Source of the DNA: an uncultured virus (IMG/VR IMGVR_UViG_3300030524_000005)
Taxonomy: Duplodnaviria; Heunggongvirae; Uroviricota; Caudoviricetes
Virus record (IMG/VR): IMGVR_UViG_3300030524_000005
Strand: one strand, 5' to 3'
DNA length: 64,000 nucleotides
In this document: positions 1,318 to 59,554 of the stretch, one piece after another
Layout: each line of letters starts with the position of its first letter
Numbering within the stretch: the stretch's first letter is position 1
Notes under the pieces: model-generated
Database searches by the model: none
The model's input: the letters and a program-made list of their open reading frames with translations, nothing else
Told to the model about the DNA's origin: nothing
Made by a program: the position numbers and the translations under genes

Positions 1318-2130
1318 ATGCCGGTACGGATGCTCCGCGAAGGAATCTTGACGAGCGAGCGTATTGATTTGCTCAGCCCCTCCGGAGAGGTTTTCTATCG
1401 TCGCCTGATGTCTGTGGTCGATGATTACGGCCGCTTTTCGGCCAACCCTAAGTTGGTGCGCGCTGCCTGCTACCCGCTCAAGTTGGATACGGTGAATGAC
1501 GCGCACATCGCTGATTGGCTTCAGGAGTGCGCCAAGGCTTCGTTGGTTCTCTGTTACGAAGTCGCCGGTAAGCAGTACTTAGAGGTGCAGGATTTCCGTC
1601 AGCAAGTGCGTTCGAAACATAGCAAATTCCCTGATCCGTTATCGGTTGTTATCAACTGCTTAGCAGATGCAAAGCAAGTGCACGAATCTGCCCACTTAGA
1701 CGGAGACGGAGACGGGGACGTAGTCGAGGACGGTAATTCCTCTACTGACGTAGAGGTAGCGATCGGCGATGCCGAATCGCCCTCTGGGAGCAAGGTTCCT
1801 GATTGCCCTCACCAGCAGTTGATTGAGCTTTACGCGAAGCATTTGCCTGAATTGCCTTACCCGAGAATTTGGGAGGGAGAGCGACAGAAGTCGATGCGCG
1901 CTAGATGGCGGTGGGTTCTGACGGCCAAGCAGAAGAACGGCCAGCAGTACGCCACGGATGAGGCGAGTGCCGTCGCCTGGTTTGACCGGTTTTTTTCGTA
2001 CGTCGCAAAGAGTGATTTTCTGAGCGGCAGGAATGGCAAGTGGAGCGGCTGCGATCTTGGCTGGTTGGTGAAGTCTGAGAATTTCGCAAAAGTCGTGCAG
2101 GGCAATTACGAGAACAAGGAAGCGAAATGA
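1318..2130 (+). CDS. phage replication initiator protein
   Basis: N-terminal VFYRRLMSVVDDYGRF wHTH-type domain, DGDGDG linker, C-terminal WLVKSENFAKVVQGNY; precedes DnaB. Confidence 0.8.
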   Translation: MPVRMLREGILTSERIDLLSPSGEVFYRRLMSVVDDYGRFSANPKLVRAACYPLKLDTVNDAHIADWLQECAKASLVLCYEVAGKQYLEVQDFRQQVRSKHSKFPDPLSVVINCLADAKQVHESAHLDGDGDGDVVEDGNSSTDVEVAIGDAESPSGSKVPDCPHQQLIELYAKHLPELPYPRIWEGERQKSMRARWRWVLTAKQKNGQQYATDEASAVAWFDRFFSYVAKSDFLSGRNGKWSGCDLGWLVKSENFAKVVQGNYENKEAK

Positions 2131-3539
2131 ACGCACCTCACGACCTACCAGAGGAAAGCCGGCTGTCAGTCCCGCCCCAGGCAATCGAGGCCGAGCAATC
2201 GGTGCTTGGCGCGCTGCTTTTCGATAACGACGCGATTGATCGCATTACCGAGTTACGGGCCGAGCATTTTTACCGGTTCGACCATCGGATTATTTTTGAG
2301 CATATTTCCCGATTGATCGTCTCTGGACGCAACGCTGATGTCATCACAGTGCATGAGGCGCTGGGGGCCGCTGGCAAGGCTGCGGATGTCGGCGGCTTGC
2401 AATACTTGAATGCACTTTCGCAGAACACACCCGGCAGCGGTGGCGTGCGGCGCTGGGCGGAAATCGTCATTAGCCGCGCCAAGCTGCGCGGGCTGATCGC
2501 AGCAGCCGATGAAATTTCAACCATGGCCTATCGGCCTGACGGGCGCGCTATCGAGGAAATTGTCGCCCTGGCGCAATCGAAGCTCGAGCCGCTGGCTGAT
2601 GCGATCGCGCACGAACCCGCCTTCATTTCAACCTTCCTCACGCCGATCGTCCAGCGCATAGACGAAGAATTTCACGGTAGCGCGACGCAGAGAAAGGCGT
2701 ATTCGACGGGCCTGCGCGATCTTGACGCAAAGCTGGGCGGTGGGATGCGTGGCGGCCAATTAATCATTGTGGCCGGTAGGCCGTCGATGGGGAAGAGCGC
2801 GATAGCCTTGGGTGTGGCGGAATCGGTCGCACAAGTCGGTGAGCCGTCGATGTTCTTCACGCAAGAAATGACGGGCGACGAGTTATCGTCCCGGTCCTTG
2901 TCGCGCGCGTCAGGCCTGCCGCTCGAAAAAATTCTAGATGGCGCGAAATTCAGCAGGGACGACAACGACCCGGATTGGAGGATGCTTACCAAGGGCGTCA
3001 GTCAACTCGCTGACCTAGCCTTGCTGATCGACGAGACGGCGGGTATATCGCTACCCCAAATTCAAGCCCGCGCACGCGCCGCTAAGCGCAAGCATGGTCT
3101 TGGCCTGATCGTTGTCGACTATCTCGGCTTGATGGCAGCGTCTCAGGGCAATAATCGCACTGAGCAGGTCGGTGCCAACAGCCGTGGTCTCAAGACGCTC
3201 GCGAAACAGCTTGGCATCCCGATTGTCTTGCTGGCGCAGCTCTCCCGTAAATGCGAAGAGCGTACCAACAAGCGCCCGATGATGTCGGACCTGCGCGACT
3301 CCGGCGAAATTGAACAGGATGCGGACGTGATCCTGTTTCTGTATCGCGATGAGGTTTATGAGCCGGATTCACCCGATCGCGGAACTGCCGAAATAAACAT
3401 TGCCAAGCAGCGCAATGGCCCGACTGGAATTGTTCGAGCTGCGTACCTGGGCGAGCGGACCATGTTCGCTGATATGGCGCCGGGTTACGTCGCAGCCCCG
3501 CACAAGGCACCAGAGAAAGCCCGTAGAGGTATGGAATGA
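2127..3539 (+). CDS. dnaB: replicative DNA helicase, DnaB family
   Basis: PPQAIEAEQSVLG, Walker A AGRPSMGKS, VVDYLGLM, SDLRDSGEIEQDAD, KQRNGPTG. Confidence 0.97.
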   Translation: MNAPHDLPEESRLSVPPQAIEAEQSVLGALLFDNDAIDRITELRAEHFYRFDHRIIFEHISRLIVSGRNADVITVHEALGAAGKAADVGGLQYLNALSQNTPGSGGVRRWAEIVISRAKLRGLIAAADEISTMAYRPDGRAIEEIVALAQSKLEPLADAIAHEPAFISTFLTPIVQRIDEEFHGSATQRKAYSTGLRDLDAKLGGGMRGGQLIIVAGRPSMGKSAIALGVAESVAQVGEPSMFFTQEMTGDELSSRSLSRASGLPLEKILDGAKFSRDDNDPDWRMLTKGVSQLADLALLIDETAGISLPQIQARARAAKRKHGLGLIVVDYLGLMAASQGNNRTEQVGANSRGLKTLAKQLGIPIVLLAQLSRKCEERTNKRPMMSDLRDSGEIEQDADVILFLYRDEVYEPDSPDRGTAEINIAKQRNGPTGIVRAAYLGERTMFADMAPGYVAAPHKAPEKARRGME

Positions 3540-9082: not shown

Positions 9083-9441
9083 AGCCATTCGACCTTGAGG
9101 CAGCCAAGCGCGGTGAGCCGATTCAAGTCAATTTCTACGACGAGAAAGGCCGGTACACGTGGACTGACGTTCATTTCGTCGGAACAACTCAAGAATCACA
9201 AATCATGATTCAGTTCGAGAACGGCTGCTGCTCGATCAAGGACGCCGACCAACTGCGCATGAGACCGTGCAAGCGCAGGTTCTTCGTCAACCTCTACCGC
9301 GACGCCGAATCGTGCACCTATATCGCTGGCGCAGTCGGGGATAGCAAAAGCGAGGTGGAGGGAAGGGCGGGCAACGTTTGGAATGGCCGAGGGATTCCAG
9401 CCCAGTACATCGGCGCGTTTCAGGTGGAGATTGAGGAATGA
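9079..9441 (+). CDS. phage hypothetical protein (KPFDLEAAK family)
   Basis: MKPFDLEAAKRGEP N-terminus typical of phage early proteins. Confidence 0.65.
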   Translation: MKPFDLEAAKRGEPIQVNFYDEKGRYTWTDVHFVGTTQESQIMIQFENGCCSIKDADQLRMRPCKRRFFVNLYRDAESCTYIAGAVGDSKSEVEGRAGNVWNGRGIPAQYIGAFQVEIEE

Positions 9442-9971
9442 GCGCGCCGACGAAAATCCTCTTTCTTGACATTGACGGCGTATTGAACAGCCACCGCACC
9501 GTAACGGTTCACGGCGGCCCTGCTGAGTTTGGCGGAACGCCCAAGGGAAATGGGTTTCCGCATAGCTTCGATGCCGCCTGCATGGCTAAATTCGATCCGG
9601 TCGCAATACTCCTGATTCGGCAGGTATGCATAGAGACGGATTGCTCAATCGTCCTGTCATCAGCATGGCGGGTCTTGTTCACGCCGCACGAATGCGCTAA
9701 TGGCCTTGACCTGCCCATCATCGACAAGACGCCATCCATGCCGGACGTGCGCGGCGCAGAGATAAAGGCGTGGCTCGATGCACATCCCGGGGTCGAGCAT
9801 TACGCCATCGTGGACGACAACAGCGACATGCTCGAATCGCAGCGAAGCCACTTCGTGCAAACGGATGGTCTGGAGGGCCTGGGATATCGAGACTTCTGCG
9901 CGCTGCGCGACATTCTCCAGGGACGCGGCTCTGGCCACCAGCGAAAAGCCTTGGTGTGGGAAGACGCATGA
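9438..9971 (+). CDS. HAD-family phosphatase (RNA-repair-like HAD domain)
   Basis: FLDIDGVLN, IVLSSAWR, RGAEIKAWL, YAIVDD. Confidence 0.85.
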   Translation: MSAPTKILFLDIDGVLNSHRTVTVHGGPAEFGGTPKGNGFPHSFDAACMAKFDPVAILLIRQVCIETDCSIVLSSAWRVLFTPHECANGLDLPIIDKTPSMPDVRGAEIKAWLDAHPGVEHYAIVDDNSDMLESQRSHFVQTDGLEGLGYRDFCALRDILQGRGSGHQRKALVWEDA

Positions 9972-10213: not shown

Positions 10214-10281
10214 AAAAAAGGCCGCACAAAGAGGCGGCCGAAAATTGATAAGCACCCCAATTTTAACATTTGGAGTGTGGA

Positions 10282-10701
10282 ATGGATAGCGCAGAAAAAA
10301 CGGTTGATGAGAACCAGATGCTTCATTTGTTTTGCATGGATTGGGCTGATTGGCATTATTCGCGCCGACTCTTTGCGCCGCCGGTCCCGCCAAACATCCT
10401 GGCGCGGCTGCAACCAAGCCCGGTGCGCGAGGTGCCGGATGCGATCCTGTCATCGGACAAGAGCTTTTTCAATCTGTCCGTGCTGATGCAGGAAGAGTCC
10501 CGCGCCAAGATGATTTTCTATCTCTATTACATCCATCGCGTGCGCAACATCAAAATCGTTGCCGAGCAGATGGGCGTTAGCACATCGTTCTGGTATCGGG
10601 AGATGCGCGAGTTCCGTGCGCTGGCATGGCGGGCATATCGAAAGGCAATCTACGCCGATGCAGACAATCCGTTCGAAGTGTGCGAGGTCGAGAAAATGTG
10701 A
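10282..10701 (+). CDS. Q-like late antiterminator/activator
   Basis: Last early gene, directly before the late promoter; WADW N-terminus and C-terminal HTH (KIVAEQMGVSTSFWY). Confidence 0.7.
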   Translation: MDSAEKTVDENQMLHLFCMDWADWHYSRRLFAPPVPPNILARLQPSPVREVPDAILSSDKSFFNLSVLMQEESRAKMIFYLYYIHRVRNIKIVAEQMGVSTSFWYREMREFRALAWRAYRKAIYADADNPFEVCEVEKM

Positions 10702-10726
10702 ACCTGTGGAGTTCACATTTTAGTTG

Positions 10727-10755
10727 TTCACACTTTGCCCTGTAAATCGTATGAT
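10727..10755 (+). promoter_or_regulatory. late promoter (pR'-like)
   Basis: TTCACA-17 bp-TATGAT; preceded by the 11-bp inverted repeat AAAATGTGAAC/GTTCACATTTT. Confidence 0.6.
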
Positions 10756-10860
10756 TTGGTATAGGCTGAATTGCTGTCTCTGGAGTCATCGCGAGACGCA
10801 CCTATACCAAATCGACCGCAAGATAGGGCGGATGCACGATCCCGTAACGTGAAGTAGATC

Positions 10861-10896
10861 AAGCCCCGCAGGTTCGCCTCGGGGCTTCGTTCGTTC
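10861..10896 (+). terminator. tR'-like intrinsic terminator
   Basis: AAGCCCCG..CGGGGCTT followed by a T-rich tail, ~100 nt after the promoter. Confidence 0.55.
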
Positions 10897-10908
10897 TGGA
10901 TACGCCAC

Positions 10909-11154
10909 ATGATGAGCACGCACCCGCTAGACCTGGCGCTCTCATTCTGGGGCATCCCATCGCGCCCCGCCTGTCTCGATCCGGTCAAGCTCAGCGTTTG
11001 GATGTATGCATGCCTCGCACTGGCCGCCGACGCTGGCCTGATCGAGATGCCGTTCGTGCCGAGCGACTGCCTTCGCGACGTGCTGCAGGCGTATTTCGAG
11101 GCGCAGATTGACCATTTCGATACCGTGGATTCGCTGTTTGGCGTGAGGCATTGA
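10909..11154 (+). CDS. hypothetical protein
   Basis: First ORF of the late transcript. Confidence 0.45.
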   Translation: MMSTHPLDLALSFWGIPSRPACLDPVKLSVWMYACLALAADAGLIEMPFVPSDCLRDVLQAYFEAQIDHFDTVDSLFGVRH

Positions 11155-11321
11155 TGCAGACCGCCAGCCAGGACGAGCCAGTCTACGGCTGGAGTCGGCT
11201 CCCGAGCGTGATCCCGTTTGAGTATGACGCGGATGGCGAGCGTGATTTCGTTGCAGAGATTGCCGTGCGCACACAGAACATACCGGAAGCAGATGCCGGA
11301 CAGCGATATAAGCCGAGTTGA
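11154..11321 (+). CDS. hypothetical protein (55 aa)
   Basis: Translated by hand; GAGG RBS; TGATG overlap. Confidence 0.4.
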   Translation: MQTASQDEPVYGWSRLPSVIPFEYDADGERDFVAEIAVRTQNIPEADAGQRYKPS

Positions 11322-11329
11322 TCGCCGGC

Positions 11330-11700
11330 AACGAACCTGGCATGCCCAGGTTAGGTAGATGGCAGCAGCCAGAGAGCAAAGGGGTGAAGCCGCCCCGCCC
11401 AAGAGGTTTCTGGCTAGGGTGTTGCGCCAACATATAAGCTCAAAGCGCAGCCGGTTCCTCACGAAACGAGGACTTTCAAGCAATCTGCACCGCGCGGGAT
11501 CGCCGCGTAGAGCACATCCAGGCGGCTTGCTTGAGAGTTGACAGCCGCAACCGAACCTTTGATGTCCCAAGCTGGCGCCAGTATGCAGGGTCGAGGACAT
11601 TGCCGCATGTGATGTGGCTCAATAGGTTGCGCCGCCACGGGAAAGCGACCGCGCAGATCAAGAGCGCGCGGAACCATTCGCTTGTGGATTCTCTCTTCAT
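11330..11700 (+). ncRNA. candidate structured RNA in the late leader
   Basis: ~370 nt with no convincing gene and at least seven back-to-back stems, two of them multibranch. Confidence 0.45.
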
Positions 11701-11716
11701 CAACCGGCAGACACGC

Positions 11717-11929
11717 ATGGCGACGACACGCAAGCAAAAGCCCGCGCAAGAGCGCACGGACACTTGCAAAAACTGCCGCCACATGCACCACGAGCGCGAG
11801 CTCACCGAATGTCGCCGTTACCCGCCAACGCCCGTCTACGATGGCGCAACCGGGTTTATCGAGCATCACTATCCAACCGTCGAGATGACGTTGTATTGCG
11901 GGGAATTTGCCGCGCACCTGAGCTCATAA
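11717..11929 (+). CDS. small CxxC/CRRYPP metal-binding protein
   Basis: CKNC..CRRYPP..YCGEF. Confidence 0.7.
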   Translation: MATTRKQKPAQERTDTCKNCRHMHHERELTECRRYPPTPVYDGATGFIEHHYPTVEMTLYCGEFAAHLSS

Positions 11930-13099
11930 ATGGTCGATCCGAATCTGCGACAGTGGGCGACCGAGCGCGAGATTTCGATAATCGATGCCATCGAGCAATA
12001 TGGCAGCGGGACGGCCGCAGCACCGCATCTCGGGTTGAATAAGAGCAACGTCAACCGGGCTATTCAAGGACTGGCGAGGCGTGCGGCGAAGATGGGATAT
12101 TCGCCGTCGCACGACATGACGCACATCGTGCCGGACGGGTTCCGCGTCAAGGGTGTCTCGACGTTCTACGATAAGGACGGCAAGCCGCGTAACCAGTGGG
12201 TGAAGAGTCAGGTCGACCACGATCGCGCCGAGGCCATCCTCAAGGAATTTGCGGAATCGCTGTCAGAAAGCATCAAAGGCCTGGCGCCGATCACTGCGCC
12301 GCCCGAGCATGTGCTGTCCGATCTGATGTGCGTGTACCCGCAAGGCGACCCACACGTCGGACTTCATGCGTGGTGGGCGGAAGCCGGCGAGGATTTTGAC
12401 CTCAAGATTGCCGAGCGCCTGATGTGCGCCGCAGTCGATCGCCTGGTAGCAACCGCGCCGGCGGCCGAAACTGCTCTGCTCCTGAACCTCGGCGACATGT
12501 TTCATGCCGACAATCAGAACAACGAAAGCCAGTCGGGCCACCGTCTCGATGTGGATGGAAGATGGGCGAAGGTTCAGCAAGTCGGGCTTCGGGCGATGCT
12601 TCATTGCATGCGCCGCTTGCTCGAGAAGCACAAGCGCGTGATTCTGCGCATCAACCGTGGCAATCACGACGGCCACTCCGCTTACGCGCTGGCCCTGATG
12701 GTTTCGTGCTACTTCCATGACGAACCGCGCATTGAAGTCGACCTGTCGCCCGCCGTCGCATGGTATTTCCAGTTCGACAAGAATCTGATCGGCTCCACGC
12801 ACGGCGACACGCTCAAAGGCCCTGACATGCCGGCCATTATGGCGGCCGATGTTCCTGAGCTTTGGGGCGCGACGAAACATCGCATGTGGTTTGTGGGGCA
12901 CGTCCACCACCAGGACATCAAAGAGTACCGGGGCTGCACAGTCGAATATTTCCGCACGCTTGCGGCTCGTGATGCATGGCACGCAGGCCAAGGCTATCGC
13001 GCCGGCCGGGATATGCGCCTGATTGTGCTGCACCGTGAATTCGGTGAAATCGAGCGCCACAGAGCTGACATCGGCATGTTGGAAGCCGCGCAAACGTAA
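11930..13099 (+). CDS. HTH plus calcineurin-like metallophosphoesterase
   Basis: N-terminal HTH (AAAPHLGLNKSNV); GDPHVG, LGDMFH, GNHD, HGD, GHVHH. Confidence 0.88.
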   Translation: MVDPNLRQWATEREISIIDAIEQYGSGTAAAPHLGLNKSNVNRAIQGLARRAAKMGYSPSHDMTHIVPDGFRVKGVSTFYDKDGKPRNQWVKSQVDHDRAEAILKEFAESLSESIKGLAPITAPPEHVLSDLMCVYPQGDPHVGLHAWWAEAGEDFDLKIAERLMCAAVDRLVATAPAAETALLLNLGDMFHADNQNNESQSGHRLDVDGRWAKVQQVGLRAMLHCMRRLLEKHKRVILRINRGNHDGHSAYALALMVSCYFHDEPRIEVDLSPAVAWYFQFDKNLIGSTHGDTLKGPDMPAIMAADVPELWGATKHRMWFVGHVHHQDIKEYRGCTVEYFRTLAARDAWHAGQGYRAGRDMRLIVLHREFGEIERHRADIGMLEAAQT

Positions 13100-13273
13100 T
13101 AACCAGCCCCTTCATGCCTGCCGCCGGATGCCTGTTACGCACGTCCACGAGACCGCGTGCAGCCGACGTCAGACCTGAAGGCGTTGCTGCATCGAAGAGT
13201 GCCCAACCGAGTTAAACGCGCCGTAATGGCGACAGCTTGTCGGTGTGGTGGCGTTTTCAACCTATATAAGACT

Positions 13274-13726
13274 ATGCCGACCATTCTTGAAACGCCTCAG
13301 TCGCTATGCCGGCGTGCGCGCCAAGCGACGGATGACAATAGAGACGTGTCGCTTGATCCGGGAGTGGTCCGACAGATCGCCGAGTCGTGGCACGCCGACC
13401 GCGAGAAGATCGAGTATCTCGAATCGCTGATCGTGCGCGTCGGCAAAGAGCCGGCGCACCGGAATGGCGACGTGCCGACCCCGGCGATTCCGTGGACTTC
13501 GCCCAACGTATGGCCATCTGGCCCGGTGATCCCAAATATCGGCGAGCAGCGTTGCGCTCAGTGCGGAATCGCGCTTTCGCCAGTTATGGGCTATGCCTGC
13601 GGCCGGCCGAACTGCCCGACCGGTCTCGGCGGATTTTCGTGCGGCGTCACCAGCGTTACCGTATCAAACCGACCGAATCCGGCGGACGGCGCACCGAAGC
13701 CCGCAGGCCATAACCCGGTCGCTTAA
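13274..13726 (+). CDS. hypothetical protein with C-terminal Cys cluster
   Basis: CAQC..YACGRPNCP. Confidence 0.55.
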   Translation: MPTILETPQSLCRRARQATDDNRDVSLDPGVVRQIAESWHADREKIEYLESLIVRVGKEPAHRNGDVPTPAIPWTSPNVWPSGPVIPNIGEQRCAQCGIALSPVMGYACGRPNCPTGLGGFSCGVTSVTVSNRPNPADGAPKPAGHNPVA

Positions 13727-13783
13727 CCGATCTCCTCCAGTTGACGAAAGTCGACGGTTGCCCTGTTGCCCCAGGGCTTTTTT
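13725..13783 (+). ncRNA. candidate anti-Shine-Dalgarno small RNA with terminator
   Basis: Unpaired TCTCCTCC, GAAA hairpin, then GCCCTG/CAGGGC-T6. Confidence 0.45.
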
Positions 13784-14747: not shown

Positions 14748-15287
14748 ATGGGGCGCCCCTCCAAGCTAACCGACACCCAGTGGGAAGAGATCCGCAAGCG
14801 GCTCTTGGCGGGCGAGAAAGCTGCCGATCTGAGTCGCGAATACGGCGTTTCGAAAACACGGATTAGCGAGCGAGTTTCGAAACGCATCGAAAACATAAAA
14901 ACCGTTGCGAATCAAATCGTTGCGACAGAAGTTTCGTTACGATCACTGCCAGTTTCGGAACAAAACGACGCCATATCGCTGGCTGATGATCTGAAGTCGA
15001 TAAGCAGGCACCTGGCTGGCGCCGGAAGGTTTGGCGCCGCCACCGCGCACCGGCTGTCTGGCATCGCCAACATGAAGGTGTCGGAGATAGACGACGCTGC
15101 GCCGCTCACACAGGGAAGCCTTGACGCACTTAAGGGAATCTCGGTGCTCACCAAACTGGCCAACGAATCTAGCGAAATCGGCATCAACCTATTGCGAGCG
15201 AACAAAGAGGCGGTCGATAAGCTCAACGAGCCCGACTCAGACCGAAGCGCATTGCTGAAGGAGATCGCCGCTCACCTCCCTGACTGA
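14748..15287 (+). CDS. terS: terminase small subunit
   Basis: MGRPSKLT HTH N-terminus; precedes terL. Confidence 0.8.
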   Translation: MGRPSKLTDTQWEEIRKRLLAGEKAADLSREYGVSKTRISERVSKRIENIKTVANQIVATEVSLRSLPVSEQNDAISLADDLKSISRHLAGAGRFGAATAHRLSGIANMKVSEIDDAAPLTQGSLDALKGISVLTKLANESSEIGINLLRANKEAVDKLNEPDSDRSALLKEIAAHLPD

Positions 15288-36625: not shown

Positions 36626-37858
36626 TTACTGGCGCCCCTCCGGCGCAGACGCCCGCTCTGACATAAAGAGCGCGGCTTGCGGAGCATCCTCGGTAAGAGG
36701 CGAGATAGCTCCACTGCCCATTTCCATGCGTAGCGCAATCTGGCGTCCTTTGCGGCGTAGCGGTGTCTCGACGAATCGATAATTGAGCTCTGACAGGCCC
36801 AGTAGCAAGCAAAGCCAGACGACAAAATATCTCAATGTGTCGCTTGGCTCAAACGCGGTTCCACTTGGCTCAATATATCGACAGATGATCAGCGTCATGG
36901 GGATGGCTGGGTAATGAATGAGGTACAGGGCGTACGAGCGCGAACCGATCCACATCAGCACCGCTTTGACGTATTGATTGCGAACGATATAACCTTTGTT
37001 GTACGAGGCGATCAAAACCAATGCGACCGATACGATAGCAACGAGTCCTGTAGAAAAAGGTACGGGATTGATCTTGCCGGCCCAATCGGAAGGCAGATCG
37101 ATAAGCAGGAATATCAGGATCGCTACGACCGAAATTGCGTAGAAACTCTTCGCCATGAATTTCGGCTCAACGATTTGATAGATGGGATGGCGCGAGAAGA
37201 TGGCGAGGAGCACGCCCAAGCAAATAGCATCCGTCCTGATCGACCAAAGCAGCGACCAAATCGGCCGAGGAATGAATATCTGAACTAGCACGATGGCGCC
37301 GAGCGCGTAGGGCAGTTTTTTGCGAAAGAGCAGTGCAGCTAGCGGCAGGAAAATATAAAACTGCTCTTCAAGGGAGAGGCTCCACCATACGTTTGCACTC
37401 CCGCATTGGTTGGGTATAGCACTGTTCATGCAAGACCAAAAATGGAAATTGGCCACTTGCATTGCGACCGCAGAAAAATCGGATAAGGCGCGCGAGAAAT
37501 ATCCAAAATAATGCGGTTCCCGAAAAATCAGAGCGCCGACGGCGAAGACAGTAATCCATAGCCAGGACGTGGGCCATATCCGGTAGATTCGCCGGATCCA
37601 AAACGCGAAGGATGCGCGCCAAAACGTCTCGCTGTCTTTCGCTTTATCTAGGCGGCTCAGCAGATCGCGGGATATGACGAAGCCTGAGATCGCAAAGAAG
37701 AGGTCGACGCCGGACCACAGGCCGAAGTACATATCGGCAGTGTGAAGCATGGCATTTTCCGAGAATAAATACTGAAGATGGCCGAATATCGTAATTAGGA
37801 TCGCCACGGCACGCAGCGCTTCTATATCGTCGATTCTGCCGCTGGAGTTGCTATTCAT
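36626..37858 (-). CDS. membrane O-acyltransferase (acyltransferase-3/OafA family), moron
   Basis: IEALRAVA..H, GVDLFFAISGF, RRIYRIWP, WSLSLEEQFY, SYALYLIH, YRFVETP; AT-richer; antisense. Confidence 0.93.
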   Translation of the reverse strand: MNSNSSGRIDDIEALRAVAILITIFGHLQYLFSENAMLHTADMYFGLWSGVDLFFAISGFVISRDLLSRLDKAKDSETFWRASFAFWIRRIYRIWPTSWLWITVFAVGALIFREPHYFGYFSRALSDFSAVAMQVANFHFWSCMNSAIPNQCGSANVWWSLSLEEQFYIFLPLAALLFRKKLPYALGAIVLVQIFIPRPIWSLLWSIRTDAICLGVLLAIFSRHPIYQIVEPKFMAKSFYAISVVAILIFLLIDLPSDWAGKINPVPFSTGLVAIVSVALVLIASYNKGYIVRNQYVKAVLMWIGSRSYALYLIHYPAIPMTLIICRYIEPSGTAFEPSDTLRYFVVWLCLLLGLSELNYRFVETPLRRKGRQIALRMEMGSGAISPLTEDAPQAALFMSERASAPEGRQ

Positions 37859-37910
37859 TTTGTCACCCGCCGTTATGTCGCGCGATATTAGCACTTTTGC
37901 ATCGATCGTC

Positions 37911-46322: not shown

Positions 46323-47423
46323 TTAGTCCGTGGAATCCGCTTTGCGCAGCCTGCGGCGGTCGTACACTTGCTCGACCATTCTGCCGTCGACGTGGCCGGT
46401 CGCATCCTGCACGTTCTTATCTCCCGCTTCCTTACGATCCGTCACGGCAGCCGGCCGCATATCCGCCAGGCTGAATCGCACGAATTCGCCACCTTCTTTT
46501 ATGGCCTGCGCCTCGCAGTAATTCATCAGGCGCCACCATATCTTCCCCCAGCCCGACTTCGTGTAAAGCTGTCCCTTCTGATTGCCAAACACATACATCC
46601 CCGGCGTTACCTGTAACGAAAGTGCTTCATCGATAGTTTCCTTCAATAACGGAGACCATCGGATCATCTTGGACCGCTCGGCTTGGCCGGCCTTACGCTT
46701 GCCAATCGGGATTGTCACGCCATCGGGGCCGAGTTGCTGACGGCGCAGCGCGCGGATTTCGCCGGGACGGCAAACCATCGAGTAGGCGGCGACCATAGTA
46801 AGGGCCAAAACGAGATATGAGCCCTTGCGCCGACGCGCCTCGGCTATGACGAAATCTCGCTGTGCCTTGGTTGTATAGGTCGTTCTCGGCTGCACGGGGT
46901 TATATCCAATGTCGCGGCATGGATTCTCGGTCACTTCGCCCAGCCGACGGCCATATTCAAGGATTGCCGACAGCAGGGCGATTTCCTTGTTCGCCTTGGC
47001 CGGCGCGCCCGCCGTCGCCCGCTTGTCGAGATACGTGTAAATGTGGTGCGTTTTGATGCCGGTTACCGCGGTCTTGCCGAATACGGCGATGAGCTTTTTT
47101 GCCTCCCGCGCGTTCTCGGTCAGCGTCGTTTCCGCCTTCCGACGCTCGTCGGTCGCCAGCATGCCCTTTTGCCATGCGAAGTAGCGAGTCGACAGATCTT
47201 CGAACGTGCCTTTTACGGTTGCCGGGTTGCCATTCAGCGCATTGGCCCGGTCGATAGCCTGCTTGCGAATCGCCGCGCACGCCGCTTTGTCGACGCTGGG
47301 CGCGGTGAGGCGAAAGGCCCATGTGCCGTCGGCGCTCTTATAACCGTAGCTGGTCTTGCGCTTTCCCACCCTTGGATAGAGCCGAAAGGGCAGGCCATCG
47401 GGTGATTCTCGGCGTCCTATCAT
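46323..47423 (-). CDS. int: tyrosine integrase
   Basis: CRPGE, ADMR, TGH, VYDR; adjacent to att. Confidence 0.92.
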   Translation of the reverse strand: MIGRRESPDGLPFRLYPRVGKRKTSYGYKSADGTWAFRLTAPSVDKAACAAIRKQAIDRANALNGNPATVKGTFEDLSTRYFAWQKGMLATDERRKAETTLTENAREAKKLIAVFGKTAVTGIKTHHIYTYLDKRATAGAPAKANKEIALLSAILEYGRRLGEVTENPCRDIGYNPVQPRTTYTTKAQRDFVIAEARRRKGSYLVLALTMVAAYSMVCRPGEIRALRRQQLGPDGVTIPIGKRKAGQAERSKMIRWSPLLKETIDEALSLQVTPGMYVFGNQKGQLYTKSGWGKIWWRLMNYCEAQAIKEGGEFVRFSLADMRPAAVTDRKEAGDKNVQDATGHVDGRMVEQVYDRRRLRKADSTD

Positions 47424-58738: not shown

Positions 58739-59554
58739 ATGGCGTGCGCTGAGAAGAACAAGGCCGACATATGGATGCCGATTTATATCGGTAACTATTT
58801 GGCGGACACAACTCGCTTGACCACCGAACAACATGGGGCATATTTTCTGCTCATGATGGACTATTGGCGCTCTGGTCCGCCGCCCGACGATGATGAAATT
58901 CTGCAAAACGTCACGCGTTTATCTGCATTTCTTTGGAAGAAAACGCGGCCTGTTCTAGAGAAATTATTTTATGTCCATGATGGTGCATGGCATCACAAGA
59001 TAATTGATGAGGAAATCGCTGCTGCCCTTGAGGGAAAAGGGGCAGCGAGCGAAAAGGCACGGAAGGCAGCGGAAGCGAGATGGGGAAAAAAGGATGCTCC
59101 GAGCATTGCTCAAGTAGATGCCCCAGAGGTGCTTGAGGAATGCCCTTTACCATTACCATTACCGTTAACACCTAAAACCTTAGCAACAGGCGGAAAAAGT
59201 ACGCATAGCGGTATACCTCGCGCGCAACCTGCCGAATTGTCTGCTGCAATGCGTCGATACAGCATCGCAGCGCAACCCGCAGATCCCCGAATCATCGCAG
59301 CGGCTGATGCCGGTGTTTCCGTCGCAACGGTCGAAGCCGCATGTGCGGAAGCCAAAGCCGCTAAGCCAGGTCAGCGCATAGCGCCGGCGTACGTCCTTCG
59401 AATCGCCGAGCGATGGACCACCGAAGCAGCTGCGCCACAGGCCCGCGCATCACCCTCTAAGCCTTTGAACGTGCATGACGATCGCAGACGCGCCTACGAA
59501 ATTCTCACCGGAAACACGCCTCATGAACCTGCCAGCGACATCATCGACATCTAA
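58739..59554 (+). CDS. DUF1376/YdaU-family replication initiator
   Basis: WMPIYIGNYLADTTRLTTEQHGAYFLLMMDYW. Confidence 0.9.
   Translation: MACAEKNKADIWMPIYIGNYLADTTRLTTEQHGAYFLLMMDYWRSGPPPDDDEILQNVTRLSAFLWKKTRPVLEKLFYVHDGAWHHKIIDEEIAAALEGKGAASEKARKAAEARWGKKDAPSIAQVDAPEVLEECPLPLPLPLTPKTLATGGKSTHSGIPRAQPAELSAAMRRYSIAAQPADPRIIAAADAGVSVATVEAACAEAKAAKPGQRIAPAYVLRIAERWTTEAAAPQARASPSKPLNVHDDRRRAYEILTGNTPHEPASDIIDI

Follow-up and report, generated by a model that had tools for sequence, protein, structure and literature searches.

Structured RNAs of phage late regions and operon heads

Between the Q antiterminator gene and the late genes, lambdoid phages carry tRNAs and toxin genes as well as leader RNAs with regulatory roles. 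To our knowledge, only a few structured RNAs encoded by phages are well supported by sequence comparison, and almost none of them come from Burkholderia-type temperate phages. ROOL and GOLLD, large phage structured RNAs adjoining tRNAs in some genomes, are in that respect placed similarly to the element described here, which differs from them in having no Rfam match to either, in being much smaller (~230–350 nt) and in its hosts. The element is also, presumably, far larger and more structured than leaders of the lambda 6S or StxS type. In Stx phages, the terminated PR' transcript is described as being itself a regulatory sRNA (PMC7547250); RNA-based processive antiterminators are described as lying early in long mobile-element operons (PMC9378689), and the account of conAn2 is of a large RNA acting with a small protein encoded beside it, at an operon head (PMC8191782). 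The RNAs of the Rfam family RF02278 (Betaproteobacteria toxic sRNA) are described as double hairpins with unpaired CU-rich stretches complementary to ribosome-binding sites (PMC5688073).

The DNA considered here is a stretch of 64,000 nucleotides (hereafter, the window) from an uncultured virus of the Caudoviricetes (IMG/VR record IMGVR_UViG_3300030524_000005), a lambdoid-type temperate myovirus. Within what would be the untranslated portion of its late transcript lies an element of ~230 bases (11470-11700, + strand) with five helices common to 25 distinct sequences, which come from contigs of phages, prophages and metagenomes. The element shows conservation, covariation of its helices and no coding capacity, and it keeps its place in the gene order. 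The reading preferred here, at a probability of about 0.45, is that it is a copy of a conserved structured RNA outside Rfam, situated in the late leader where the late operon begins. Probably it is a regulatory RNA not previously described in phages, because its fold is kept by compensation, it matches no described family, and it occupies the antiterminator-to-late-gene position.

The likeness to a lambdoid late leader lies in the order of the parts, in which the element comes after a Q-like gene, a site resembling a promoter and a hairpin resembling a terminator and ahead of the first late genes, with tRNA genes in the same Q-to-late-gene gap of two relatives, just 5' of the element; it differs in standing 0.6-0.8 kb past the first terminator-like hairpin, behind two small ORFs. 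HK022 put, EAR and conAn2 are likewise structured RNAs near the head of a long mobile-element operon, 5' of terminators, but here a Q-like protein antiterminator is already encoded, and some copies of the element have no downstream terminator. The resemblance to RF02278 belongs to the relatives, whose 3' module aligns with the consensus UGUCUCCUC...GAUUC...terminator, sharing a stretch of CUCCUC, a hairpin whose loop is CU-rich, the GAUUC spacer and the terminator; the matches are sub-threshold (27.5 bits in L035 and L080 and 30.3 bits in L038, against a gathering score of 50), and they cover only this 3' appendix, not the five-helix core. RF02278 has no match in the window.

A search of the whole window against Rfam 15 gave 0 matches at gathering score, the only overlap with the element at E ≤ 10 being a minus-strand lncRNA match (16.9 bits, E 1.2); among 15, and then 18, relatives, tRNAs were the sole matches at gathering score. 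The window itself has no tRNA, as the preliminary description had noted (ARAGORN, 0 tRNA genes in 64 kb), and a keyword search of open-access text found no description of the motif.

Table 1. Features of the window around the element (P1-P5, helices of the element; all on the + strand).
Feature	Coordinates	Strand	Remarks
Q-antiterminator-like gene	10270..10701	+	143 aa; identity to PBR31 Q
Promoter-like site TTCACA-17-TATGAT	10727..10755	+	Candidate late promoter directly 3' of Q-like gene
Conserved 43-nt block with small hairpin	10809..10851	+	91% identity to L007 1886-1928
GC-rich hairpin AAGCCCCG..CGGGGCTT, then CGTTCGTTCT	10861..10888	+	Candidate tR'-like terminator, read by eye
Small ORF	10909..11154	+	81 aa
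Small ORF	11151..11321	+	56 aa
5' module	11334..11472	+	Three stems/hairpins plus the 11367-11415 stem with inner hairpin 11381-11396
Stem AACCTGG/CCAGGTT	11334-11340/11346-11352	+	
Stem AGCCAGAGA/TTTCTGGCT	11367-11375/11407-11415	+	
Stem GTTGCGC/GCGCAGC	11421-11427/11445-11451	+	
Hairpin TCCTC..GAGGA	11456-11472	+	Loop ACGAAAC
P1, long hairpin	11473..11537	+	Arms CTTTCAAGCAA/TTGCTTGAGAG at 11473-11483/11527-11537; inner hairpin 11493-11507
P2, stem CGCAACC/GGTTGCG	11546-11552/11625-11631	+	Encloses P3 and P4
P3	11561-11567/11595-11601	+	Inside P2
P4, hairpin	11602-11618	+	GCCGCAU-GUG-AUGUGGC; inside P2
P5	11634-11638/11684-11688	+	Inner stems 11643-11648/11678-11683 and 11649-11654/11666-11671
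Stem CCGCGC/GCGCGG	11649-11654/11666-11671	+	Inner stem of P5
CU-rich 3' tail	11689-11695	+	Single-stranded
Small Cys4 protein ('CRRYPP')	11717..11929	+	70 aa
HTH + calcineurin-like metallophosphoesterase	11930..13099	+	389 aa
ORF	13157..13726	+	From ORF list
Intrinsic terminator GCCCTGTTGCCCCAGGGC TTTTTTATTC	13760-13777	+	Closes small operon

Structure and covariation of the element

All of the stems named in the preliminary description are present where it had placed them (Table 1), and in 25 distinct relatives those from 11473 onward are maintained through compensatory changes. In alignment A7, which like A5 was fitted to the structure of the model, 99.7% of 630 cells are paired, with 6 pairs and 28 cells changed on both sides; none of 500 shuffles scored as high, and slid controls were 23-46% paired. 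A MAFFT alignment that was not fitted to the model (A3) gave 97.5% paired cells and 9 pairs with double changes, again with 0 of 500 shuffles as high.

The model, R1, spans 184 positions of the 3' domain; P1 lies outside it and was tested separately by script. Among the relatives P1 has 18 distinct arm pairs, and the native inner-arm duplexes have a mean energy of -15.3 kcal/mol, against -7.2 kcal/mol for 304 cross pairings, 2% of which reach the native mean; double changes occur in 5 of its 9 base pairs. P2 has two pairs with double changes, and in P3 two pairs are changed in 10 of 24 sequences, much of this covariation being one haplotype swap carried by 10 sequences. P4 is near-invariant, with one change of G-U to A-U and the loop variants GUG, AUG and GUA, while P5 occurs as CCGC:GCGG (19 sequences), CCAC:GUGG (5) and CCAG:CUGG (1). 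The minimum-energy fold of the window's copy recovers P2, P3 and P4. The 3' tail, ACUCCCUC, is near-invariant; the window has CUCUC there and, at 11533-11537, GAGAG where GAGGG would stand, and the GAGGG:tail pairing rests on this single compensatory event, in the window itself. GAGGG can pair with either of two partners, the 5' CCUUC of P1 or the 3' tail. The + strand is indicated by 36 G-U pairs in the 18 P1 duplexes, of which 13 are more stable on that strand, and the tRNA genes and terminators of the relatives have the same orientation as the element.

The preliminary description had joined these helices and the stems 5' of them into one multi-domain, undescribed phage RNA of ~370 nt. An undescribed structured RNA is very likely for 11470-11700, to judge by the comparison of sequences, and not for the whole ~370 nt: the conserved element is only ~230 nt long, and on alignment the 5' ~150 nt (11322-11470) is a separate module, common to only one relative, L010, which carries it without the 3' element. 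Positions 11359-11425 are 87% identical to L010 2214-2280, and the alignment of these two sequences shows compensation in three hairpins; scanning for the pattern gave 4 loci, all on contigs of the window itself or of L010, and a search for further relatives of 11359-11425 found none. The structural evidence for 11322-11470 is thin because there is only one other distinct sequence.

Genomic setting

The Q-like protein matches the 'antiterminator Q protein' of Xanthomonas phage PBR31 (42% identity, 104 aa, E 8e-28), its look-alikes in the atlas are clusters with PF06530 (score 0.95), and a structure match gave TM 0.65/0.77; the Pfam PF06530 HMM itself did not match the protein. A CACATTTTAGTT block directly 3' of the Q stop codon is common to the window, prophage L048 and PBR31. 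By its consensus match (10 of 12 positions, promoter scan), the site at 10727-10755 is a candidate late promoter; none was found in L007 and L048. The conserved 43-nt block, with a hairpin that changes from CCGC..GCGG in the window to CCGG..CCGG in L007, lies in L007 immediately 5' of two tRNA-Ser genes. The GC-rich hairpin that follows it aligns with intrinsic terminators 3' of the Q genes in L048 (425-456) and PBR31, and was not called by the terminator scan of the window because its T-run is weak.

Both small ORFs between this hairpin and the 5' module have elevated third-position GC in their frames; they have zero protein-family matches, and no relatives among the fetched loci apart from identical contigs. 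The element stands ~0.8 kb 3' of the Q-like gene and 5' of the genes for the Cys4 protein and the HTH-metallophosphoesterase; in prophage L048, a Q homologue lies 1.2 kb 5' of it. A DNA search of the cultured-phage collection with window positions 10900-13300 gave only two short coding matches.

Distribution of relatives

The exact P4 23-mer was found at 24 viral-contig loci and its degenerate form at 10 metagenome loci; a second anchor, in P2, gave 16 loci, 3 of them new contigs. Each of the 25 sources chosen, none of them duplicates, is matched by R1 with a score of 86-191 bits. Applied to 150 Burkholderiaceae-family genomes, with only ~17 candidates scored per genome, the model found 1, and a pattern search of 401 genomes gave 3 matches, among which G081 was confirmed; the match in G103 was rejected as a chance match inside coding-like sequence. 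The element occurs in phages of Burkholderiaceae type. Rfam tRNA matches in relatives L025 and L031 lie only 5' of the element.

Most relatives have a CU-rich double hairpin and terminator module 3' of the element, and words of the CUCCUC/UUCCCC type occur within 75 nt in 15 of 20 loci. The window's copy is without this module and directly abuts the Cys4 gene.

Alternative explanations

Possible, if doubtful, is a cis-acting leader, either an RNA processive antiterminator of the HK022 put, EAR or conAn2 type or a riboswitch-like sensor, that would gate a terminator 5' of the Cys4 and phosphoesterase genes. A terminator-like hairpin, taken as an intrinsic terminator, does lie within 170 nt 3' of the element in 15 of 20 relatives, and ends ~10-20 nt 5' of the next start codon (by eye, in the alignment), so that there is no room for a promoter; however, 4 of the 20 copies, including that of the window, keep the core without a terminator, and the conserved 3' strand has no consistent pairing, by eye, to the very different terminator stems of the relatives. 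An HTH-metallophosphoesterase of either of two types is encoded within 1.5 kb in 15 of the 17 loci with sufficient downstream sequence (the exceptions being L038 and L048; Pfam confirmed the type in L039 only), but the gene directly 3' of the element varies, belonging to at least six families. Invariant junction nucleotides amid variable peripheral hairpins give the core an aptamer-like character, and the alternative partners of GAGGG would suit a switch, although the tests made suggest no ligand or effector. The large RNA and small protein described at an operon head provide a precedent (PMC8191782), against which a Q-type antiterminator is already encoded 5' of the element in both the window and L048, and an RNA antiterminator would therefore be redundant. 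Distinctly less probable is the RNA-protein system of the preliminary description, in which the element would serve the Cys4 protein, the HTH-metallophosphoesterase or both as a scaffold or guide. Although 10 distinct loci have a Cys4 gene after the element, two HTH-metallophosphoesterase types occur 3' of the same RNA, and in the window as in PBR31 the Cys4 gene abuts that of the phosphoesterase, the pair exists in PBR31 without the RNA: homologous Q, Cys4 and phosphoesterase genes are present there, with a Q-to-Cys4 gap of only 115 nt and a terminator 20 nt 5' of the Cys4 gene, and because of this close spacing the link to the phosphoesterase looks positional. Moreover, R1 was positive in only L007 and L011 among 18 phosphoesterase-anchored loci, L048 has the RNA and neither gene within 1.5 kb, and tblastn finds matches to the phosphoesterase family in 2052 of 50,697 phage records. 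Q, Cys4 and phosphoesterase form a conserved late-operon head, and the neighbourhood that had suggested a coupling is best explained by the location of both RNA and phosphoesterase at that head; as a pair, the Cys4 and HTH-metallophosphoesterase genes are commonplace in late operons and widely distributed, and do not form a dedicated partner of the RNA.

It is very improbable that the element acts as DNA, in double-stranded or cruciform form, perhaps as a promoter bearing a regulator site or as a packaging or recombination site. In its DNA sequence a 45-nt core does not vary, an invariance that is partly by construction, in a narrow family, because the sequences were fetched via near-exact anchors; the helices spanning or flanking this core nevertheless covary and tolerate G-U pairs (A-C mismatches on the other strand), and the fixed blocks are separated by inserted hairpins that differ in length. 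Inside the core, TTGCCG-17-TAGATT can be read by eye as -35/-10-like but was not called by the promoter scan, and the several metagenome contigs that end within the element do so at four different positions, a pattern to be expected if assembly breaks in shared repeat sequence, rather than of a fixed genome end. Hardly credible at all is that the region has no function, being chance stems in a GC-rich spacer or coding for extra N-terminal residues of the Cys4 protein. Folding is not energetically superior to that of shuffled controls, an outcome that the preliminary description had named as evidence against its proposal: the 397-nt gap has z -1.06, with 14 of 100 shuffles folding equally well (minus strand, z +0.11), the 232-nt element alone has z -0.44, with 65 of 200 shuffles as good, and one relative has z -0.09. 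ORF 11531-11929 is open in the window, third-position GC in its frame climbs from ~11580, and L011 retains one open frame through the region. Against these points, all three + frames are stopped in 16 of 22 relatives' sequences, the Cys4 homologues all start at the equivalent of M63, and the core is higher in nucleotide identity than the protein genes that flank it (36-83% protein identity); the spacing between conserved blocks represents all classes mod 3, and no reading frame is conserved across the element. With the covariation in A3, A7 and the P1 arms also standing against it, a lack of function is already largely refuted by the stop-codon, P1-arm and A7 results.

Proposed mode of action

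As a conserved structured RNA of the late leader, the element would be transcribed from the + strand once Q allows polymerase read-through, by analogy with the adjoining tRNA genes of two relatives, and would then act as RNA. The preferred mechanism, given roughly one chance in three, is that of a stable late regulator of the small-RNA type, with exposed CU-rich stretches (the tail CUCCCUC and, in most relatives, also the following CUCCUC and the hairpin and terminator module) that would pair with purine-rich ribosome-binding sites in phage or host messages; the internal GAGGG, by pairing with the 5' strand of P1 or with the tail, could mask or unmask this seed. The 3' CU-rich hairpin and terminator module would have been lost from the window's copy, the tail of which, CUCUCUUC, is a poor anti-Shine-Dalgarno sequence; the RF02278 likeness, sub-threshold as it is, is located outside that copy.

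More elaborate versions are rather unlikely, namely an RNA of a new regulatory class with a built-in switch, combining a GAGGG toggle, an anti-Shine-Dalgarno seed and a late-infection shutdown of translation in host or phage, or a fourth kind of RNA antiterminator or sensor gating an operon for the Cys4 protein and an Mre11-like nuclease. Roles as an antitermination RNA, a decoy or an RNP scaffold, as raised in the preliminary description, are possible. Since the element stands at the Q-to-late-gene junction, it may exemplify a novel phage strategy for timing late expression or disturbing host translation, and the model and the 25-sequence alignment make it directly testable.

The Cys4 protein, the phosphoesterase and the end of the operon

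The two genes 3' of the element abut, as had been noticed. For the first, the start codon is taken to be ATG 11717, since every homologue opens with M-[AP]-x-[RK]-K; C17, C20, C32 and C61 of the encoded Cys4 protein are invariant in 13 of 13 homologues, including (E 2e-10) one encoded 5' of the phosphoesterase in PBR31. The five calcineurin-like, metal-binding motifs ascribed to the second protein (D140-x-H142, G188-D189-x-x-H192, G244-N245-H246, H291 and G323-H324-x-H326) proved invariant in 14 of 14 aligned homologues (36-83% identity), and the protein has a full-length match to phrog_704 'DNA repair exonuclease' (E 2.8e-106). PF00149 did not match it at E ≤ 0.01; the second-type protein of L039 was matched by PF00149 at E 1.9e-4. 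The AF2 model of the phosphoesterase (pLDDT 76.7) has as its best solved matches Mre11 nucleases (E ~1e-6), at a TM of only 0.36-0.45, and Foldseek returned Mre11, Vps29, purple acid phosphatase and others at probability 1.00 and TM 0.25-0.57. The protein resembles Mre11-SbcD-like phage metallophosphoesterases in keeping the motifs and in having a model nearest, among solved structures, to Mre11 cores, but it has an N-terminal HTH, and no Rad50/SbcC gene is nearby. Annotations of the records in the family disagree (phosphatase, exonuclease, regulator, oxidoreductase).

Searches of NCBIfam and of the sequences of solved structures with the proteins gave nothing useful, and a predicted complex of the Cys4 protein with the phosphoesterase scored 0.00 against a mark of 0.32, which is no answer and weighs neither way. 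Beyond the terminator that closes the small operon, minus-strand genes come ahead of the terminase genes at 14748.

Genomic setting

The window phage is a lambdoid-style temperate myovirus with a G+C content of 58%, in which the gap under study, ~395–397 nt long, is flanked on one side by a 56-codon ORF and on the other by a pair of abutting genes. Upstream of it, a 143-aa protein shares 42% identity (E 8e-28) with the Xanthomonas phage PBR31 protein annotated as antiterminator Q; PF06530 is found in atlas look-alikes of the window protein, although the Pfam HMM itself does not match it. In PBR31, a 115-nt gap that includes an intrinsic terminator separates Q from a 70-aa homologue of the four-cysteine (Cys4) protein; a phosphoesterase homologue (52% identity), terminase and portal come next. 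The window has the same Q, Cys4 and phosphoesterase genes, but its gap spans 1015 nt and contains, in order, a promoter-like site, a conserved 43-nt block, a GC hairpin, two small ORFs and the RNA modules. The stretch just after the Q-like gene looks like a unit of late promoter, Q-site and tR′ belonging to this type of Q. The structured element occupies the Q-to-late-gene junction; in prophage L048 the element has a Q homologue 1.2 kb upstream, and two further loci (L025, L031) have co-oriented tRNA genes immediately before it.

Coordinates of features in the window and in related loci
Feature	Location	Remarks
Replication initiator and DnaB-like helicase genes	1318–3539	
phrog_21472 matches	1318–2130; 58739–59554	replication/primosomal-type proteins
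HAD-family gene	9438–9971	HAD_SAK_2 match, E 1.9e-25
Q-like gene	10270–10701	
Q-like gene, CACATTTTAGTT block and terminator or terminator-like hairpin together	10270–10888; L048 2–456; L065 (PBR31) 2760–3282	
Promoter-like site	10727–10755	
43-nt block	10809–10851; L007 1886–1928	91% identity
GC hairpin	10861–10888	aligns with terminators after Q in PBR31 and L048
Gap under study	11322–11716	
Upstream hairpin set	11334–11472; L010 2175–2340	
Shared block	11359–11425	L010, 87% identity
Structured element	11470–11700 (+)	
Shared block	11539–11636	L011, 82% identity
Shared block	11585–11658	L007, 84% identity
Open frame	11531–11929	
Cys4–phosphoesterase pair	11717–13099; L065 3283–4652; L039 2–1379	Cys4 ATG at 11717
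Terminase, portal, head, tail-sheath, baseplate genes	14748 onward	
O-antigen acetylase-like acyltransferase gene	36626–37894 (−)	phrog_3333, phrog_6705
Integrase gene	46323–47423	
RF02278 sub-threshold match	L035 1356–1413 (−)	directly 3′ of element
RF02278 sub-threshold match	L080 635–692 (+)	directly 3′ of element
RF02278 sub-threshold match	L038 980–1035 (−)	about 390 nt further on

Several further features of the region were observed. The CACATTTTAGTT block directly follows the Q-like stop codon in three phages, and in each is succeeded by an intrinsic terminator or terminator-like hairpin. The non-coding 43-nt block recurs in the otherwise diverged phage L007, 12 nt before a pair of tRNA-Ser genes, its small hairpin changing from CCGC..GCGG in the window to CCGG..CCGG. 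A HAD-family gene matching the ‘Swiss Army Knife RNA repair’ domain precedes the Q-like gene by 300 nt. The acyltransferase gene, which follows the tail fibre genes but is encoded on the other strand, is likely a lysogenic-conversion moron, and the phrog_21472 matches at both window ends may reflect a circularly permuted record or two related replication genes.

Comparative evidence for a structured RNA

A stem-rich region preceding two genes had been reported in the preliminary description and is confirmed: all seven stems it named are present at the positions it gave, and ARAGORN finds no tRNA within the window. Its interpretation as an undescribed RNA of ~370 nt holds in part: a new structured RNA family is well supported, with a length of about 230 nt.

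Loci fetched around phosphoesterase relatives (22 viral and one Paraburkholderia prophage) have only short blocks in common with the window in their non-coding flanks. An exact 23-mer from the block shared with L007 was found in 24 viral-contig loci and its degenerate form in 10 metagenome loci, and a second anchor gave 16 loci, including 3 on contigs that the first had not reached. Fixed sequence blocks alternate in the alignments with hairpins of varying length and sequence, and RNAalifold yields a junction of helices. The element comprises a long 5′ hairpin (P1), a helix P2 enclosing P3 and hairpin P4, and a further stem, P5. A MAFFT alignment of 15 sequences has 97.5% of its cells paired and 9 pairs that change on both sides, a level reached by 0/500 column shuffles, with slid partners 30–48% paired; a second alignment, of 25 distinct sequences fitted to the covariance model and therefore biased toward that model's structure, is 99.7% paired with double changes in 6 pairs (28 cells; 0/500 shuffles as high, slid partners 23–46%). 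P1, outside the covariance model, was tested by script: 18 distinct arm pairs form duplexes of 18–22 bp, the inner arms averaging −15.3 kcal/mol natively versus −7.2 for 304 cross-pairings. The family is narrow; since all members were obtained via near-exact anchors, P4 invariance is partly by construction, although in three sequences from the other anchor P4 has a G-U pair turned to A-U and altered loops, and the P3 covariation represents a single shared haplotype.

The element is non-coding. Although an open frame crosses it in the window, third-position G+C climbing from about 11580, no conserved ORF spans the region: in 16/22 relatives every one of the three + frames is interrupted by stops, conserved-block spacing falls in all three classes mod 3, and every Cys4 homologue starts downstream. 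Rfam 15 gave no match at gathering score anywhere in the window and nothing meaningful over the element at E ≤ 10, in the window or relatives, and keyword searches of open-access literature found no description of the motif.

Four metagenome or viral contigs (L027, which begins at window 11548, L029, L033 and L037) start or stop inside the element, each at its own position, probably through assembly breaks where co-occurring phages share it. The upstream hairpin set, common only to L010, has compensatory changes in three hairpins, one with a conserved ACGAAAC loop; on so few sequences, it may represent a small RNA module in its own right.

Sequences 3′ of the element in relatives

In 15/20 loci, a terminator-like hairpin and its T-run come within 170 nt 3′ of the element, and in L025 one missed by the hairpin finder is also present; CUCCUC- or UUCCCC-type words occur between element and terminator region in 15/20 loci. 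Three loci have sub-threshold matches (27.5–30.3 bits versus a gathering score of 50) to RF02278, the Betaproteobacteria toxic small RNA, which has in common with the relatives' 3′ appendix a consensus 5′ UGUCUCCUC, a GAUUC spacer and a terminator. In PMC5688073, RF02278 RNAs are described as sRNAs that are abundant in Burkholderia cenocepacia and form two hairpins, their unpaired CU-rich stretches being complementary to ribosome-binding sites. Phages may carry relatives of this host sRNA family. Unlike most relatives, the window's copy lacks the appendix, its Cys4 gene beginning 18 nt past the element.

Possible roles of the element

The element is conserved, covarying and non-coding, and its position within the late region is constant; it would be transcribed when the Q-like protein permits read-through, and would act as RNA. 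The favoured reading is a stable late regulator exposing CU-rich single strands, on the grounds of tRNA neighbours, an own terminator, the toxic-small-RNA-like appendix and a tail that hardly varies, ACUCCCUC. In P1, the GAGGG of the 3′ base could pair with either 5′ CCUUC or the 3′ tail; all three parts are altered together in the window (CUUUC, GAGAG, CUCUC), which is one event only, the same-position 5′ U also occurring in relatives that keep GAGGG. The main rival is a cis-acting role, in antitermination or sensing.

Chance stems are less likely given the double changes, although folding energy, better than shuffled controls in neither the gap (z −1.06 on the + strand, +0.11 on the −), the 232-nt core (−0.44) nor one relative including its terminator (−0.09), speaks against structure by the criterion that the preliminary description itself set; shuffles of DNA this G+C-rich fold about equally well. 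A DNA site is likewise less probable: G-U pairs are frequent on the + strand, P1 having 36, and the + strand duplex is the stabler in 13/18, which suits an RNA transcribed the same way as the adjacent genes. Coupling of RNA and proteins was the other part of the earlier proposal. An HTH-metallophosphoesterase of either of two types (assigned by reading, with Pfam run on L039 only) lies within 1.5 kb at 15/17 loci with enough downstream sequence, the exceptions being L038 and L048, yet the covariance model of the 3′ domain matches only L007 and L011 among 18 phosphoesterase-anchored loci. The link to both proteins looks positional, the element neighbouring the phosphoesterase because it sits at the Q-to-late-gene junction, and a complex with them is a less likely role.

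The downstream proteins

All Cys4 homologues begin M-[AP]-x-[RK]-K at the assigned start, and the four cysteines are invariant in 13/13 sequences. The 389-aa phosphoesterase aligns over its full length with phrog_704 (‘DNA repair exonuclease’; E 2.8e-106), and the five metallophosphoesterase motifs recognised earlier are kept in 14/14 homologues; among solved structures, its AlphaFold model (pLDDT 76.7) is nearest to Mre11 nuclease cores, at a TM of only 0.36–0.45. It is a common phage gene, found by tblastn in 2052/50,697 phage records, mainly enterobacterial and Vibrio siphoviruses, with discordant annotations. Cys4 and phosphoesterase form a conserved abutting pair spanning Burkholderia-type and Xanthomonas phages, a pairing that persists with a second phosphoesterase type bearing a homing-endonuclease-associated repeat.
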